Origin: a virus
Lineage: Duplodnaviria; Heunggongvirae; Uroviricota; Caudoviricetes
DNA length: 64,000 bases
Virus record (IMG/VR): IMGVR_UViG_3300029736_000004
Strand: one strand, 5' to 3'
Within the stretch, counting starts at the first letter, position 1. The number at the start of each line of letters is the position of its first letter. A program made the translations under genes and the position numbers. This document shows, piece after piece, positions 195 through 52,063 of this stretch. Below the pieces are notes generated by a model that made no database searches, was not told the DNA's origin, and saw only the letters and a list, made by a program, of their open reading frames with translations.

Positions 195-1112
195 GTGGCT
201 GATATTGGTGCTAAATTTATTTCTTATAGCGACAATCATCGTCCTGCGGCGGAAGCCACTATCAACCATATGCGACGTATTCGCTCGGAGGACGAATTTG
301 ATCGCCCCGTCTTTAAGTGGGTCGGCGGCAAATTTTCTGCACTGCCCATTATCTTCGAACACCTGCCCCACGGAAAACGGTTGATAGAACCTTTCGTTGG
401 AGGTGGCGCTGTTTTCACTAATGCCGGATTTAAAAGCAACCTGCTGAACGATATCAATAATGACCTGATTAACTTCTATCAGACATTGCAGCGTGAAGGG
501 CATTCTCTTATCACACTGGCATATCGTTTTTTTCAGGATTACAACTCTGCTGATGCATTTTTGAATGTTCGCAATGCATTCAACAATGGTGCTTATGATT
601 CTCTTCACCATGCGGCGGCGTTCCTGTATCTCAATCGTCATTGTTTTAATGGCGTCACTCGCTATAACCGTAAAGGAGAGTTCAACGTCGGATATGGAAA
701 GCAGAAATCTCCCTACTTCCCTCTCGCGGAAATGGAGGCGTTCCTGGATGACGATATTTCAAAGTATTCGGAGTTTGTGTCCGGCGATTTTGCTGGTGTA
801 ATTGAGGCTGCCGGGAATGATGATGTGATTTTCTGCGATCCCCCCTATGAACCATTGCCTGACACTACCGGATTTACAAATTACTCAGGGCATAGCTTTA
901 GGTTTGAAGATCAACAACGGCTGGTGTCACTGCTGGTGGATGCCCACAGACGCGGAGCGAAAATTGTGATAACAAACAGTGGTGCGCCTAACATTCGCGA
1001 ACTTTACGTTGGCAATGGCTTCAAGGTGTATCCTATGCCATCCCGTCGCTCTGTATCCTGTAAAGCATCAACGCGAATGATAGCTAACGACATTATAGCC
1101 ACGCTTAATTAA
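195..1112 (+). CDS. dam: DNA adenine methyltransferase (Dam family)
   Basis: Dam-like motifs FKWVGGK, EPFVGGGAVF and DPPY in ORF 78-1112; AAGGAGG SD 5-6 nt before in-frame GTG at 195. ATG at 78 or 270 are alternative starts. Confidence 0.8.
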   Translation: MADIGAKFISYSDNHRPAAEATINHMRRIRSEDEFDRPVFKWVGGKFSALPIIFEHLPHGKRLIEPFVGGGAVFTNAGFKSNLLNDINNDLINFYQTLQREGHSLITLAYRFFQDYNSADAFLNVRNAFNNGAYDSLHHAAAFLYLNRHCFNGVTRYNRKGEFNVGYGKQKSPYFPLAEMEAFLDDDISKYSEFVSGDFAGVIEAAGNDDVIFCDPPYEPLPDTTGFTNYSGHSFRFEDQQRLVSLLVDAHRRGAKIVITNSGAPNIRELYVGNGFKVYPMPSRRSVSCKASTRMIANDIIATLN

Positions 1113-1117
1113 GAAAA

Positions 1118-1137
1118 GCCCCATATGGGGCTTTTAT
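1118..1137 (+). terminator. rho-independent terminator after dam
   Basis: GCCCCA-TA-TGGGGC hairpin followed by TTTTAT. Confidence 0.5.
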
Positions 1138-1149
1138 AACATCAAACAA

Positions 1150-1240
1150 GCACCGTTACGGTACACTAATAACACCATTCTGGTACTAAAAAGGAACCAA
1201 AGCAGCCTCAAAATAACACATGGAACCAAAACGGTGTTAT
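1150..1240. repeat. repeat cluster downstream of parAG (GGAACCA / ACCAAAACGGTGTT motifs)
   Basis: GGTACTAAAAAGGAACCAAA and ACCAAAACGGTGTT here are mirrored by inverse copies at 2363-2400 on the other side of the operon. Confidence 0.3.
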
Positions 1241-1247
1241 TCCGGCG

Positions 1248-1535
1248 TCATTTTGTATCCTCAGACTCTGCAAGCATGAGGATAGCATGGCGGATCATAT
1301 TCAATTTGCTGCGATTATGCTTTTTGCTTAACGCATCAAGTACCTGGTACTCGTATTCATTGAAGCCAACACGAATGGATTTAAAATCACGTGGGGCGTC
1401 CTTATCGAGCACTTTGTTGTCTTCTGGTTGCTCACCCGGCACCAAATCAGCTTTGCTGGCAAAAGCCTCAATTCGGCGTTCAAGATCGAGGTCTTTTACT
1501 TCGGGGGCTTTTACCGATTTACGAGGCTTAATCAC
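1248..1535 (-). CDS. ribbon-helix-helix partition protein (ParG-like centromere binder)
   Basis: 95 aa; C-terminal strand-helix-helix pattern (KSIRVGF...EYQVLDALSKKH...LNMIRHAILMLAE); start overlaps parA stop by 8 nt. Confidence 0.5.
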   Translation of the reverse strand: MIKPRKSVKAPEVKDLDLERRIEAFASKADLVPGEQPEDNKVLDKDAPRDFKSIRVGFNEYEYQVLDALSKKHNRSKLNMIRHAILMLAESEDTK

Positions 1536-2169
1536 TTAATAACTCCTTAACCAACATCTGGATTTCACCTTTAGCTTTCCCGTTGTCCATCTCAACAACG
1601 CCCTTCCCTTCAGCCATACAATCGCGGTAAACCTTGCGATCGCGAATGATGGTTTTCAGCAACTTCAGTTGCGGATATTCAGCAAGGTACTCTTTGGCCT
1701 CATTGGCTTCATTCACAACCGGATTGGATGGGGCCATTGTTAAGACTGCGCACGCCTTAATGCTAGGATTAGGCATCAGATCCAAAGCCTCTTCAAAGAC
1801 TTCAACAAAATGCGCCAGCGTGTCTAAATCTGGCTGAGATGGCCTGAATGGAACAAGCAAAACATCCGCCGCAGTAATACCGGTGCGCATCTCTTTGCTA
1901 TCACGACCAGCGGTATCAACAACCACAAATTCATAACGCTTGTCCAGATCAAGAAGTGTTTCACGAATATTCCCAAACTTCTGGACGCAATGAATTACTG
2001 GAGAAACCTCTGCCGCATTACGGTCCGATGCCCAACGGGCAGATGTTCCTTGCTTATCTGCATCAAGTAGAACTACGTCCTTATTTGCGCGGGCAAGCTC
2101 CGCACAAATGTTTACGCTGGTGGTTGATTTGCCACAGCCACCTTTTTGGCTGGCTACCAATATAATCAT
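1528..2169 (-). CDS. parA: ParA/ParF-type partition ATPase (small, type Ib)
   Basis: 213 aa; deviant Walker A KGGCGKST near N-terminus; VVLLDADKQG motif. Confidence 0.8.
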   Translation of the reverse strand: MIILVASQKGGCGKSTTSVNICAELARANKDVVLLDADKQGTSARWASDRNAAEVSPVIHCVQKFGNIRETLLDLDKRYEFVVVDTAGRDSKEMRTGITAADVLLVPFRPSQPDLDTLAHFVEVFEEALDLMPNPSIKACAVLTMAPSNPVVNEANEAKEYLAEYPQLKLLKTIIRDRKVYRDCMAEGKGVVEMDNGKAKGEIQMLVKELLSD

Positions 2170-2194
2170 ATCCGTTCCTCGGTGTTATTTTGGT

Positions 2195-2410
2195 ATCAAA
2201 ATGGTTCCAAACAGAAGCCTTATTGATGCGGTTTTGGCTCTATAGTGGAGTCACTATGCTTTGCAAAAGTATAACACTAAACACTCTAAATTTGCCCTCT
2301 GTTGCATCCTGTTTAACACGAAATCAGCCTCAAAGTGGAACCAGACACAAAACAGCACCATAACAACACCGTTTTGGTACTAAAAGAACACCAAATTAGA
2401 ACCATAACAG
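2195..2410. repeat. repeat cluster upstream of parAG (candidate centromere/operator)
   Basis: TGGTTCCAAAC, GTGGAACCAGAC, AACACCGTTTTGGTACTAAAAGAACACCAAA; related motifs at 1150-1240. Confidence 0.3.
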
Positions 2411-2440
2411 TATAAAAAAGGCTGCAAATTGCAGCCTTTG
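2410..2440 (-). terminator. rho-independent terminator after parMR (minus strand)
   Basis: GGCTGCAAATTGCAGCC hairpin; minus strand reads hairpin then TTTTTTAT. Confidence 0.45.
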
Positions 2441-2454
2441 AAGATGTAGATTTG

Positions 2455-2820
2455 TTAATCAGGGAGTGAGTTTGCCAAATTCTGTGCAGAGCGGCTTTTC
2501 GAAACGCCAGGTTTTTTAACATCCGCTGAGGCAGAGGGGTTTCCTTCAGGGTTTTCCCGAACTTCAGGCGAAATTTCAAGAAATGAAACCAGCATTTTTC
2601 TGATCACTTCAGGGCTATTATCACCGGATAAAAGCGATGCCAACATGGGAGGTAATCTGCTATCAACCTCGCCAAGAGCGATACCTGCAAGCATCGCTGT
2701 GCGCGCCATATCATTGCGATCTCTTAATGGATGGCCCTCAAGTTTTGCATCAGCATATTGCTCACTGGCGTTAAGACCAGGACGAAGATAAAACAATACT
2801 TTTCGACGTTCCTGAGACAT
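2455..2820 (-). CDS. parR: ParR-like centromere-binding protein (type II partition)
   Basis: 121 aa directly downstream of parM; N-terminal RRKVLFYLRPG...MARTAMLAGIALG resembles R1 ParR KRRTIAFKLNP...NRAALTAGLAL (recalled). Confidence 0.6.
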   Translation of the reverse strand: MSQERRKVLFYLRPGLNASEQYADAKLEGHPLRDRNDMARTAMLAGIALGEVDSRLPPMLASLLSGDNSPEVIRKMLVSFLEISPEVRENPEGNPSASADVKKPGVSKSRSAQNLANSLPD

Positions 2821-2830
2821 GGCAACCTCA

Positions 2831-3790
2831 TCAACCGATAGATTTTAGACCATAGACAAGAGCAAGTTGTGGATCATCAGCAACGAAAAACCTATCGTCA
2901 CGAATGTTTACCTGCTCACGGATAGCATCAGCAACAAGCGGCGCGCCGCCACCAATGACCATAACATGCGTGTATCCTTTGAAATCACTGATCACATCCA
3001 GTACGCGTGTACGGAGTCGTTCTATGCTTGACGAAATGGCTTTCTTAACATCATCAATAGCAGACGGATCGTTAATATTGTCGGTCAAATAATCCTCATC
3101 ATCACGATTAATGATTAATTGATCGACATTATAATTAGAGGTTTCGGTATTCGCTTTTGCAAGTGCCTGTCTGACCTCTTTAGTTACCAGCGAAACGCCG
3201 AGATTAGAATCGCCAAATACGCGAGAAACGGCGGTCATTTGCCCGGCGACCATCGACACATCCAGAGTAGTCCCACCAAGATCAACAATAAGCACAGAAT
3301 GCGCTGGCACAAGGCTGTCGCACAGACCGATCCCTGCGGGTATTGACTCCGGGCGCACAGTCACTTTTTTGATAGTAAAAACCTGACCTTTGTTAAGGGT
3401 GACTGGTCGCATCAGGCTGGCCTTTTTCCGCTCAATATTTTTCATGTTGTATTGTGCGTCGTCGTCATAAAACTCTGCCAGTGGCAACGTGACAACTATT
3501 TCCACTTCTTGAGGCTCAATGCCACTTGTAAGCAGGGCATGATGAACAGCAAGCACATTAAGCGGGCTGTATTGCCATTCAACGTTATTCGTCGGCAGCA
3601 CATCCGGCGAGATCAAGTCATATGAATATTTTTCGTCATCAATGATGTAGTTAAACGGCTTTCCTGCGCCAAATGTGGCGGACCATCCACGTTTAAAACT
3701 GTTCGGACAGATATGGGTTCGAGTTTCCCCGTCTTGTTCCCACAGCATTTTGATATTGGTAGAACCATCGTCGATAAAAATGCGCATCAT
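2831..3790 (-). CDS. parM: ParM/StbA actin-like segregation ATPase
   Basis: MRIFIDDGSTNIK phosphate-1 motif, VLIVDLGGTTLDV, VMVIGGGAPL; start set at ATGATG 3790 with GGAG SD rather than upstream ATG 3847. Confidence 0.8.
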   Translation of the reverse strand: MMRIFIDDGSTNIKMLWEQDGETRTHICPNSFKRGWSATFGAGKPFNYIIDDEKYSYDLISPDVLPTNNVEWQYSPLNVLAVHHALLTSGIEPQEVEIVVTLPLAEFYDDDAQYNMKNIERKKASLMRPVTLNKGQVFTIKKVTVRPESIPAGIGLCDSLVPAHSVLIVDLGGTTLDVSMVAGQMTAVSRVFGDSNLGVSLVTKEVRQALAKANTETSNYNVDQLIINRDDEDYLTDNINDPSAIDDVKKAISSSIERLRTRVLDVISDFKGYTHVMVIGGGAPLVADAIREQVNIRDDRFFVADDPQLALVYGLKSIG

Positions 3791-3799
3791 ATTGCTCCA

Positions 3800-3990
3800 C
3801 TTCTGAGACACATTTGAGAAAGAATTGAATTTTATATGAGAAAACAAAATAAGACCAGAAGTTAGATAGCGTAAAAAGCATCAAACTAGAGACGTAAAAG
3901 AGACACAAAAGAGACTTAGATGATACATGATGTACCCACGATACCCATTTGAGACAAATCAGAGACAAATATGAGAAGTAAGAAATCTGA
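3800..3990. repeat. parC-like centromere: phased 11-bp AGAGACA repeats
   Basis: AGAGACgtaaaAGAGACacaaaAGAGACttaga at 3888-3920 and GAGACAAATCAGAGACAAATATGAGAAG at 3950-3978, immediately upstream of parM. Confidence 0.5.
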
Positions 3991-4039
3991 AGAGTGAAAA
4001 TCACAAAGTGGAGAAGATTTAAGAAAAAGGAGGTGTTAG

Positions 4040-4324
4040 ATGAGTGCAATAGCGACCAGTGACACAGTTTGTTCTGGTCATGGAGGATTCCCTCCGCGAC
4101 CTGTAGCAGAAACAGTTTCCTGGTTTACCGTAAATGGAAAGCCAGTGGTTGTAGATGGGGGAGCGTTCCCCAGCCATACAGACGGAAATAGCGCGCACCC
4201 CGGATCAGCCGTATCGACGCGCTCATGGTTTGCAATAGGCGGAAAAGGAGTTGTTTGTGTGGGAGATCCCCTTTCTTGTGGCTCAGTCATCGCCAATGGT
4301 GAGGCAATTTTTCAGGTGTCATAA
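4040..4324 (+). CDS. PAAR-like spike-tip protein (putative)
   Basis: 94 aa; TVNGKPVVVDGG and VGDPLSCGSVIANG segments resemble PAAR repeats; AAGGAGG SD. Confidence 0.4.
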   Translation: MSAIATSDTVCSGHGGFPPRPVAETVSWFTVNGKPVVVDGGAFPSHTDGNSAHPGSAVSTRSWFAIGGKGVVCVGDPLSCGSVIANGEAIFQVS

Positions 4325-37514: not shown

Positions 37515-37599
37515 CAAGAATGTATGATTTATATCGTCACTAAAAAACAGCATCTGATAAAAATTCTGTTGATCTTTCTAATGTTCAGGCTTATATTCA

Positions 37600-37830
37600 T
37601 GCCGTCGTAGCAAATTCTGCGACCGGGTTTAGCAGCCTGAATGTTAGTGCGGACAACCGCAGATATCCGATATTGCGGTATTTTTGTGTCCGTAAAACCG
37701 CGTTACGCCCAAATTATGGTGGGGCGTGATGGGGAGGCTTCGGCCTGCTGGTTTCACTAACGCCAGTCTGCTAACCCCGTCACGTCCTGCCACCTGTTTA
37801 GCAGCGGGTAGCAGGTTGTTAAACCTGTTA
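37600..37830 (+). ncRNA. candidate c4-like antisense RNA / structured leader
   Basis: TTTAGCAGC at 37628 and 37798 is complementary to CTGCTAA at 37768; GAGGCTTCGGCCTGC tetraloop hairpin; lies upstream of icd-like and Rha-family genes. Confidence 0.3.
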
Positions 37831-51034: not shown

Positions 51035-51111
51035 GATGGTGTAGCTCAGTAGGATAGAGCAGCAGCCTTCTAAGCTGTCGGTCGGTGGTTCGAATCCACC
51101 CACCATCGCCA
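51035..51111 (+). tRNA. tRNA-Arg (anticodon TCT)
   Basis: Cloverleaf: acceptor GATGGTG/CACCATC, D-arm TAGCTCAGTAGGATAGAGC, anticodon loop CTTCTAA, T-arm GGTGGTTCGAATCCACC, CCA end. Confidence 0.85.
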
Positions 51112-51116
51112 ATTTA

Positions 51117-51203
51117 GGGGAGTTAGTCCGTAGGGGTAGCGGGGTAGACTGTAAATCTACTGTCATTGCGACTCGGATGGTTCGACTCCATCACTCCCCA
51201 CCA
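51117..51203 (+). tRNA. tRNA-Tyr (anticodon GTA)
   Basis: Acceptor GGGGAGT/ACTCCCC, anticodon stem-loop GTAGA-CTGTAAA-TCTAC, long variable arm, T-loop TTCGACT, CCA. Confidence 0.8.
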
Positions 51204-51207
51204 AATT

Positions 51208-51283
51208 GCCGGTTTAGCTCAGTTGGTAGAGCAGTCGCTTTGTAAGCGAATGGTCAGCGGTTCGATCCCGTTAACCGGCACCA
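51208..51283 (+). tRNA. tRNA-Thr (anticodon TGT)
   Basis: Acceptor GCCGGTT/AACCGGC, D-arm GCTCAGTTGGTAGAGC, anticodon loop TTTGTAA, T-loop TTCGATC, CCA. Confidence 0.8.
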
Positions 51284-51296
51284 ACACAACAGGTAA

Positions 51297-51361
51297 GGGT
51301 ATTTTGCGACATCGGAGATCGCCGAGCTTGGCAGAGGGTTCGAATCCCTACGAAGTACCCT
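51297..51361 (+). other. tRNA-like element lacking a canonical anticodon arm (possible degenerate tRNA)
   Basis: Acceptor-like GGGTATT/AGTACCC, D-arm-like GCGA...TCGC, T-arm GAGGGTTCGAATCCCTA, but only 11 nt between D and T arms; extended outer stem CACAACAGGTAAGGG/CCCTTGCCGTTGTG. Confidence 0.25.
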
Positions 51362-51471
51362 TGCCGTTGTGATGAATGCACAGGCTGATGTGCCGCAACT
51401 ACAGTAGTGCGCGCTTTGCGGGGCTTGCTACAACCCTGTGTCGGAGTTCAGCACCGACCATCACAATCACT

Positions 51472-51558
51472 GGAGAGTAGGGAGCATGGTGCTCAAGCGG
51501 TCTTGAAAACCGTCCCATTGCGCAAGCGATGATGGTTCGATTCCATTACTCTCCGCCA
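51472..51558 (+). tRNA. tRNA-Ser (anticodon TGA)
   Basis: Acceptor GGAGAGT/ACTCTCC, anticodon stem-loop GCGGT-CTTGAAA-ACCGT, long variable arm, T-arm GATGGTTCGATTCCATT, CCA. Confidence 0.8.
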
Positions 51559-51849
51559 GCGCAACGTTAAGAGTATTTGGCTAATTAAGCGAATGCCGGA
51601 AGCAGAACCGGATCACCAAATGCGTACAGGCGTCATCGCCGCCCAGTCAGCCAAATGCTCTTACCATTGCGGTGAATGCGGCTAAGCGCACGCGGAACAG
51701 TTAAAACAGTAAAGGTGGTCTTTTTACTGGCGTAACGAGCATCCATAAGTGATCCGGCGTTAATTGTTAACTGGTTAACGTCACCGGGAGGCACCCGGCA
51801 CCGCAACCTAACAGCAATGGCGTTTTGTCTTAAAAGGTGGCTGCAAGTG

Positions 51850-51978
51850 ATGGATTTTTGGGCGTTTGCCGATAAAAACCCGGAGTGGACATTATTGTTT
51901 CTGCTGGTGGTTGCATACGGGGTAGAGCAAGCGGCAAAAGCCTTACGCGGTTCTGGCAAAAAGCGTAAGCGTAATTAA
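51850..51978 (+). CDS. small hydrophobic ORF (42 aa) between tRNA genes
   Basis: MDFWAFADKNPEWTLLFLLVVAYGVEQAAKALRGSGKKRKRN; not in the ORF track (under 60 aa); AAAGGTGG upstream. Confidence 0.25.
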   Translation: MDFWAFADKNPEWTLLFLLVVAYGVEQAAKALRGSGKKRKRN

Positions 51979-51987
51979 CAGTAATCT

Positions 51988-52063
51988 GGCCCTTTAGCTC
52001 AGTGGTTAGAGCGGGCGACTCATAATCGCACGGTCACCGGTTCAAGTCCGGTAGGGGCCACCA
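51988..52063 (+). tRNA. tRNA-Ile2-like (anticodon CAT; Met not excluded)
   Basis: GGCCCTTTAGCTCAGTGGTTAGAGCGGGCGACTCATAATCGC...GGTTCAAGTCCGGTAGGGGCCACCA closely resembles E. coli ileX-type tRNA (recalled). Confidence 0.8.

Follow-up and report, generated by a model that had tools for sequence, protein, structure and literature searches.

Two tandem partition cassettes of different types in a D6-like plasmid prophage, with phased repeat arrays as candidate centromeres

The window analysed here is the whole 64,000-nucleotide (nt) stretch of IMG/VR record IMGVR_UViG_3300029736_000004 (Caudoviricetes), which is a D6-like, P1-related plasmid prophage (phage-plasmid), and our subject is the plasmid partition (par) module between its dam gene and upfC, a P1 gene of unknown function. 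We observe four intact open reading frames (ORFs) in this module, all on the minus strand and head to tail, in the order parM, parR, parA and a gene of 95 amino acids (aa) with a predicted ribbon-helix-helix (RHH) product (Table 1). The start of parR follows parM after a gap of 10 nt, there is an 8-nt overlap between parA and the RHH gene, and a strong predicted intrinsic terminator between the two pairs separates them into two transcription units. The tandem order of the four genes is kept in phage D6 and in the four other relatives examined (L005, L007 and L008 among them). Positions 1100-4040 of the window match the E. coli plasmid NZ_LR890273.1 at 99.4% and Escherichia phage D6 at ~85% identity, and 122 plasmids in PLSDB share the par module, nearly all of them ~90 kb and non-mobilizable, in Escherichia, Salmonella and Shigella. 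The annotation of a 92.8-kb relative (99.4% identical) comprises phage structural genes, a RepB-type initiator ~11 kb from the par region, a Cre-like recombinase and the toxin systems Phd/Doc, HigB and HicA, and it names no partition gene beyond the four described here.

Table 1. Genes and candidate cis-acting features of the par module (positions in the window)
Feature	Position	Strand	Description
parM	2831..3787	-	Actin-like segregation ATPase, 318 aa from the second ATG; alternative ATG at 3790
parR	2455..2820	-	121-aa centromere-binding adaptor (predicted), behind GAGG
parC	3805..3983	-	Three phased clusters, ~12 iterons of 11 bp in all, upstream of parM
parA	1528..2169	-	213-aa Walker-type partition ATPase; deviant Walker A motif KGGCGKST; type Ib size
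95-aa gene	1248..1535	-	ParG-like centromere-binding protein candidate; GTG start overlapping the parA stop
S1	1149..1238		Downstream array; RRHACC/GGTDYY words at 1149, 1171, 1182, 1193, 1222, 1233; candidate second centromere
S2	2181..2208		GGTGTT, GGTATC, GGTTCC at 2181, 2192, 2203; candidate autoregulatory operator
S3	2337..2403		Distal upstream array; words at 2337, 2354, 2365, 2376, 2387, 2398; candidate centromere
parA promoter candidate	2268..2276	-	Extended -10 element TGTTATACT, read on the minus strand
Intrinsic terminator after parR	2417..2439	-	10-bp stem and T run; kept in 5/5 relatives aligned
Perfect 11+11 hairpin	1114..1135		Between the dam gene and the par module

The parM product matches the Pfam families StbA_N (E = 2e-69) and ParM_N (E = 9e-56), aligns over its full length with ParM of plasmid R1 (residues 1-319, E = 1e-110), and keeps the nucleotide-binding motifs DDGSTN and DLGGTTLD, the latter holding the equivalent of D170, a residue that is essential in R1 ParM (PMC6519299). 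The parM start is preceded by a GGAG at a distance of 7 nt. ParR is very diverged from its R1 counterpart and detectable only through the Pfam family Plasmid_stab_B (3e-14) and its sole solved relative, pB171 ParR (PDB 2jd3), whose RHH N-terminal domain it matches over residues 3-78 (4e-7). With the ParM ATPase and the downstream gene for a small ParR adaptor that the type II (ParMRC) class requires, this pair is, by its predicted products, a type II cassette.

The parC region upstream of parM is built on the iteron core GAGAC on the plus strand (GTCTC in the gene direction), with iterons starting at 3805, 3816, (3827) and 3838 in the first cluster, 3889, 3900, 3911 and 3922 in the second, and 3940, 3951, 3962 and 3973 in the third. 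Within the 196 nt of 3795-3990, GAGA[CA] occurs nine times against ~0.36 expected, all on one strand, which makes this the densest spot of the 64 kb, and the region matches itself at lag 11 (z = 5.4). In D6-type relatives, the sequence upstream of parM is different and the 11-bp GAGA phase is retained, the DNA identity between the window and D6-type parC being ~45%. The ParR protein likewise stands apart from D6-type ParR, which is itself almost invariant: the two share just 58% aa identity and a conserved C-terminal tail. The window allele (at least 95% identity) is found in just 7 PLSDB plasmids, the next best match being at 59% and none lying between 60% and 95%. These differences suggest that ParR and parC of the window may have a different centromere specificity with the same motor. 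Two ParR-matched plasmids are IncI loci with parMR only. A relaxed scan gives weak parMR promoter candidates between and over the iteron clusters (TTTACG-18-TATTTT and TGGTCT-17-TAAAAT).

The best solved relative of ParA is TP228 ParF (PDB 4dzz; 3e-18 over residues 4-211), its Pfam matches are AAA_31, CbiA, MipZ and VirC1, and it is without the DNA-binding N-terminal extension typical of type Ia ParAs. As for its expression, TGTTATACT stays unchanged in five relatives, where the rest of the spacer has diverged, and is the best candidate that we can infer for the parA promoter; an imperfect hairpin, TGGCTCTATAGTGGAGTCA (window 2235-2253), lies in the presumed parA 5' leader and is partly conserved in D6-type relatives.

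The 95-aa protein has no direct match in Pfam, NCBIfam or PDB, a PDB search with a profile of close homologues likewise gave nothing useful, and a word-indexed homologue search returned relatives of at least 74% identity only. An exhaustive profile search recovered 125 representative relatives (54-130 aa, plus a few longer), and among the 83 of them that were aligned, 24 match the NikA-like and 20 the RHH_1 family of Pfam, others matching DUF6290, RHH_7, TraY, TacA1 or RHH_5; the named families matched by the relatives are RHH families. The family profile aligns to CopG residues 3-43, that is, the whole strand-helix-helix (E = 0.14). An AlphaFold model from a shallow alignment reached a pLDDT (predicted local distance difference test) of 61 with a merely suggestive Foldseek list, and the modelling was repeated with the 83 sequences, giving a pLDDT of 85 overall and above 95 for residues 50-92. 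The modelled fold consists of an extended segment, a helix at 60-73 and a helix at 77-92, plus an N-terminal helix at 16-29, and its top Foldseek matches are essentially all RHH proteins: CopA_SO (probability 0.99), Arc, CopG, ParG (rank 6), TacA1, CdbA and NikA. CopG superposes with a template modelling (TM) score of 0.83 and a root-mean-square deviation (rmsd) of 1.0 Å, within a range of TM 0.7-0.84 and rmsd 1.0-1.7 for CopG, Arc and CopA_SO. The model and the matches of the relatives support placement of the protein in the RHH superfamily.

The protein thus modelled has an N-terminal MxK(R/K)R peptide, the helix at 16-29, a linker and a C-terminal RHH domain at ~50-92. Its N-terminus is conserved across the family (K3 in 66 of 79 and R5 in 68 of 78 members, then I-E-x-F-A-x-x-A-D), and by analogy with known partners this is likely to be the part that contacts ParA and stimulates its ATPase. 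As judged from its sequence and layout, the cassette is of type Ib, since a small ParA, a directly downstream co-inherited partner gene and flanking arrays are all present.

A preliminary description, made from the letters and their ORFs without database searches, had read this locus as two adjacent partition systems of different types, a small ParA and RHH partner in a type Ib layout next to a ParM/ParR operon with phased 11-bp parC-like repeats. This reading is borne out by the R1 ParM and pB171 ParR matches, by the lag-11 iterons, by the ParF-like size and architecture of ParA and by the fold and relatives of its partner. Inactivating lesions, which the same description had named as the finding that would speak against it, were looked for, and neither frameshifts nor premature stops are present in the four genes. 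Compared with D6-type alleles, the ratio of nonsynonymous to synonymous divergence (dN/dS) is 0.02 for ParM (dS ~2), 0.03 for ParA and 0.09 for the RHH protein, and both cassettes are intact and under purifying selection. In one close relative, locus L009 (NZ_CP069647.1, pMUB-MIN14-1; 1000-3930, 94.5% identical), the annotation names parR alone, and both parM and parA are broken into fragments; sequencing indel errors or a real decay of both motors could be the cause.

Three repeat arrays (S1, S2 and S3) accompany the type Ib cassette, with RRHACC/GGTDYY words at spacings of mostly exactly 11 nt. For these words, no other 110-nt window of the whole 64 kb is as dense as S1 and S3. In the two non-coding flanks, GGAACCA is found at 1193, 1222 and 2337 and inverted at 2202 (4 copies against 0.07 expected), and ATAACAC in 5 copies against 0.02 expected, so that the repeats are far beyond chance. 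The related motifs on both sides of the operon had been noticed in the preliminary description as possible centromere or operator sites, a proposal that gains from the 11-bp phasing and from the same words and phasing in distant cassettes (see below); the motif that it placed at 1224 and its inverse at 2363 are both present, with positions 1-2 nt off (ACCAAAACGGTGTT at 1225-1238 in S1, inverse copy at 2365-2378).

The individual arrays differ in placement and conservation. S2 lies just upstream of the parA ribosome-binding site, in an orientation opposite to most S3 words, and is conserved in the relatives L001 and L008. S3 is positioned just past the parR terminator, and in D6, L005, L007 and L008 the equivalent place has the same RRHACC words at 11- or 22-nt spacing. 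The S1 and S3 regions of these four are barely alignable with those of the window (40-65% identity), and S1 of the D6 type contains close variants of the RRHACC words that the strict pattern mostly misses. We did not find a description of the repeat arrays in the literature searched, which did not include the D6 genome paper.

Outside the D6 group, the RHH protein is encoded on plasmids of Serratia, Aeromonas, Arsenophonus, Acinetobacter and Moraxella, usually beside a gene annotated as 'AAA family ATPase'. The ParA-RHH pair stands alone, without ParMR, on the conjugative Serratia plasmid pELP1.10 and on an Aeromonas salmonicida plasmid. In the Aeromonas plasmid the pair is located beside repA, a Tn3-family transposase gene follows directly after the cassette, and any downstream array may thus have been lost. 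The upstream regions in Serratia and Aeromonas display GGTAC, AACACC, GGAACC and GCACC at 11-nt steps.

A wider scan, with a 17-sequence alignment of the RHH family as query and one genome per species, yielded 30 distant loci from diverse Gammaproteobacteria; in 28 of the 30, the gene next upstream of the RHH gene encodes a full-length ParA homologue (57-70% identical), and neither ParM nor ParR occurs within 4 kb in any of them. For the 24 non-redundant loci among them, and with the word as defined on the window, we count 89 RRHACC words upstream of parA against 34.7 expected (P = 1e-14), and 43 of 56 nearest-neighbour spacings between these words are multiples of 11 (P ~1e-34). Because the same words and the same 11-nt phase are enriched in distant ParA-RHH loci, the arrays travel with the pair, and this co-travel is, a footprint apart, the strongest evidence available for a role as its cis sites.

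With respect to the history of the module, the window and the D6-type plasmid NZ_CP069886.1 have a genome-wide median identity of ~81% (400-nt windows), as against 99-99.8% in segment 1251-2250, which holds parA and the RHH gene and is the most similar segment in the 64 kb, with ParA proteins that are 100% identical. Synonymous divergence is saturated in dam, upfC, upfB and parM (dS >1 for dam, upfC and upfB), and the near-identity of parA-RHH amid such neighbours points to a recent exchange of the type Ib coding part between sublineages. By this identity profile, the parA-RHH segment is a recombinant patch. The opposite idea, suggested by the difference in ParR and parC, that parMRC was the recently imported piece, was ruled out, as dam, upfC and upfB are equally diverged and parA-RHH is the anomalously similar segment. 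The patch, together with a replicon that differs from that of P1, where a type Ia parABS lies by repA, supports the earlier suggestion that the maintenance module is mosaic and not P1-like.

Taken further, these patterns allow a broader proposal, which we regard as plausible but rather less than probable: the ParA-RHH cassette would represent a widespread Gammaproteobacterial type Ib subfamily, for which we found no experimental characterisation, in which the RRHACC code stays constant while the binding protein diverges to ~40-55% identity, and whose coding part is exchanged as a unit among D6-like phage-plasmids, with the flanking arrays and ParR/parC remaining lineage-specific.

For the locus itself, we consider it highly probable that this is a tandem double partition locus, with two autonomous cassettes serving one low-copy D6-like plasmid prophage. 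In the type II cassette, ParR dimers would coat the 11-bp GAGAC iterons of parC, and ParM-ATP filaments, captured at their growing ends by the C-terminal tail of ParR, would push sister plasmids apart; ParR bound at the iterons would presumably repress parMR too, because the promoter candidates lie between and over the iterons. In the type Ib cassette, dimers of the 95-aa RHH protein would bind RRHACC words one helical turn apart, with S3 and S1 as centromeres and with S2 and the words over the -10 element as operator, and plasmids would be positioned along the nucleoid as the basic N-terminal peptide stimulates the ATPase of nucleoid-bound ParA. Each system would in this way be autoregulated via the repeats at its own promoter. 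The binding partners, promoter positions, autoregulation and stabilising activity in this scheme are modelled on R1, pB171, TP228 and pESBL.

Several observations weigh against this double-cassette reading or parts of it. The ParA match to the NCBIfam model ParA_partition (2e-46, 158 bits) stays below the cut-off of 180. The Foldseek E-values for the 95-aa protein are weak (0.1-1), because the RHH domain is tiny (just ~40 residues), and by sequence the protein falls outside the ParG family (PF09274), given that it has no Pfam or PDB match and that ParG is absent from the 25 families most matched by its relatives; it resembles ParG in fold alone (Foldseek). No consensus sigma-70 promoter for parMR was found in the promoter scan. 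Furthermore, the downstream array is weakly supported in the distant cassettes (52 words against 30.5 expected, P = 2e-4), and S1 may be specific to the D6-like lineage of the window. On the Shigella plasmid pINV, which has two functional par systems, the contribution of the co-resident systems to stability is masked by other maintenance systems and depends on temperature (PMC6519299); because of this masking, an equal contribution of both cassettes is not assured here. The element also encodes Phd/Doc, HigB and HicA.

The same masking (PMC6519299) would also fit a division of labour in which ParMRC alone partitions the prophage and the ParA-RHH pair acts in copy-number or transcriptional control, or in incompatibility or exclusion against related plasmids. 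A paper on a D6-like Salmonella plasmid lists its partition system as 'cop, parA, stbB and parM', thereby labelling the ParA-RHH genes 'cop' and parA, RHH proteins are often plain repressors (CopG, Arc), and the cassette was recently exchanged between lineages, as an incompatibility determinant might be. However, the pairing of the RHH gene with a ParF-like Walker ATPase of full length in 28 of the 30 distant loci would be superfluous for a mere repressor, and the basic N-terminal peptide (K3 and R5 in ~85% of members) fits a ParA-activating tail. The helical-turn-phased arrays on both sides of the operon also reproduce the type Ib centromere layout, as repeat arrays flank the type Ib operons of pB171, pSM19035 and pESBL on both sides (PMC7602700), and in the Aeromonas plasmid, where the pair lies beside repA, the annotation of the 7.2-kb stretch examined names no partition gene besides the pair. 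On balance, we regard such a division of labour as unlikely. Less likely still is that the RRHACC arrays are RepB iterons, host-factor sites or recombination scars instead of sites for the 95-aa protein, with the true ParA centromere elsewhere: S1 and S3 do coincide with recombination junctions, where identity to D6-type plasmids breaks down, and the downstream word enrichment in distant cassettes is modest, but RepB is ~11 kb distant in the element, the words and their 11-nt phasing accompany the ParA-RHH pair in 24 unrelated contexts across many Gammaproteobacteria, and the arrays keep their words while their surroundings are unalignable between lineages, a signature of selection on the motif.

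The double partition locus has a clear precedent. The two par loci of pB171 are transcribed divergently from a shared region. That pair (par1, type II parMR; par2, type Ib parAB with parC1 and parC2) resembles the present one in that a type II and a type Ib locus adjoin on one low-copy enterobacterial replicon, and in that repeat arrays lie upstream and downstream of the type Ib operon (PMC7602700, PMC4270457). The adjacent type I and type II loci of pB171 share one regulatory region (PMC6519299), whereas the two cassettes here follow each other in tandem on the same strand, with a terminator between them, and have unrelated repeat families (GAGAC versus RRHACC); pB171 is moreover a virulence plasmid, and the element here a phage-plasmid.

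The individual cassettes follow known models less closely in their cis sites than in their genes. The R1/NR1 ParMRC (StbAB) system has the same order parC-parM-parR, with 11-bp iterons upstream of parM, and its ParM aligns full length with that of the window. In R1, parC is laid out as 5+5 iterons. Here ~12 iterons form three clusters, and the iteron sequence differs even between D6-like lineages. Compared with TP228 ParF-ParG-parH, ParA is ParF-sized and its partner is similarly small, with a flexible N-terminus and a C-terminal RHH domain, ParG being among the top structural matches. The parH site of TP228 consists of 4-bp boxes with 4-bp spacers. By contrast, the words here are of 6 bp, 11 bp apart and on both sides of the operon, and the partner is without sequence membership in the ParG family.

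Within its own lineage, phage D6 (orf58-orf61, GenBank MF356679) and D6-like plasmids such as pYU39_89 share the four genes, their order and their genomic position with the window. The proteins of D6 and the window are 96% (ParA), 96% (RHH protein) and 93% (ParM) identical, in contrast to the 58% of ParR and the ~45% DNA identity of parC given above. The D6 GenBank record names StbA, StbB and a 'possible ParA', and calls orf61 'hypothetical'. The tandem layout is thus usual for the phage D6 lineage and had already been annotated, just as the kind of double par locus is known from pB171. P1, a related plasmid prophage, serves the same purpose with a type Ia parABS: its annotation shows parS-parB-parA, with a ParA operator and a site for integration host factor in parS, beside incA-repA-oriR, and its ParA has 398 aa and its ParB is of the ParB/SopB family. 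Nothing of this kind is annotated in the 99.4%-identical relative, and ParA here has 213 aa. In P1, upfC directly abuts the uhr-hrdC-dmt operon, whereas here the double par module fills the junction between dam and upfC. P1 ppfA was considered as a ParA-like gene at the equivalent position and ruled out, since the P1 record describes it as 'possible periplasmic function'.

With respect to the surroundings of the module, the perfect hairpin on its dam side is probably a bidirectional terminator that bounds it. The adjoining methylase gene (window 195-1112, +) is Dam-only, with 305 aa as annotated in a close relative, and its counterpart in L005 (7264-9552) encodes a 762-aa protein in which, as in P1 Dmt, a cytosine-methylase domain is fused to a D12 adenine-methylase domain. 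In D6-type elements, glnS, a full glutaminyl-tRNA synthetase gene (L001 1069-2730, L008 1-1230, L005 5554-7215), separates the methylase gene from the par module; glnS is absent from the window and from L007. On the other side, the P1 upfC homologue (window 4040-4324, +) adjoins parC and encodes a small PAAR-motif protein (Pfam PAAR, 6e-7), and the upfB homologue, ~59% identical to the D6-type version, comes next after it. An Rfam scan gave no match in the par region. Elsewhere in the window, the P1-type immunity RNA C4 with the a1/b1 target region (Rfam 70 and 54 bits) and a five-tRNA cluster (Arg-TCT, Tyr, Thr-TGT, Ser-TGA, Met-CAT) are present, these observations being located at 37591-37797 (+) and 51035-52063 (+).

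The finding is otherwise ordinary, since textbooks cover double par loci as well as ParMRC and type Ib systems, and the D6 genes were already annotated; this analysis adds an RHH identity for the fourth gene, a map that covers parC, S1, S2 and S3, the shared RRHACC words and 11-bp phasing across the subfamily, and the recombinant status of the type Ib cassette. P1/D6-group phage-plasmids are common in E. coli, Salmonella and Shigella and need to be inherited at about one copy per chromosome. A D6 lineage with two independent segregation machines would guide the building of D6-based vectors or the curing of such prophages, by indicating which pieces are to be kept or removed, and the mapped cis sites predict which elements should be partition-incompatible. 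The repeat vocabulary shared across the ParA-RHH subfamily offers a ready hypothesis for centromere recognition, and, if the broader proposal of a widespread subfamily with an exchangeable coding part is true, partition specificity in D6-like prophages would be reshuffled piece by piece.

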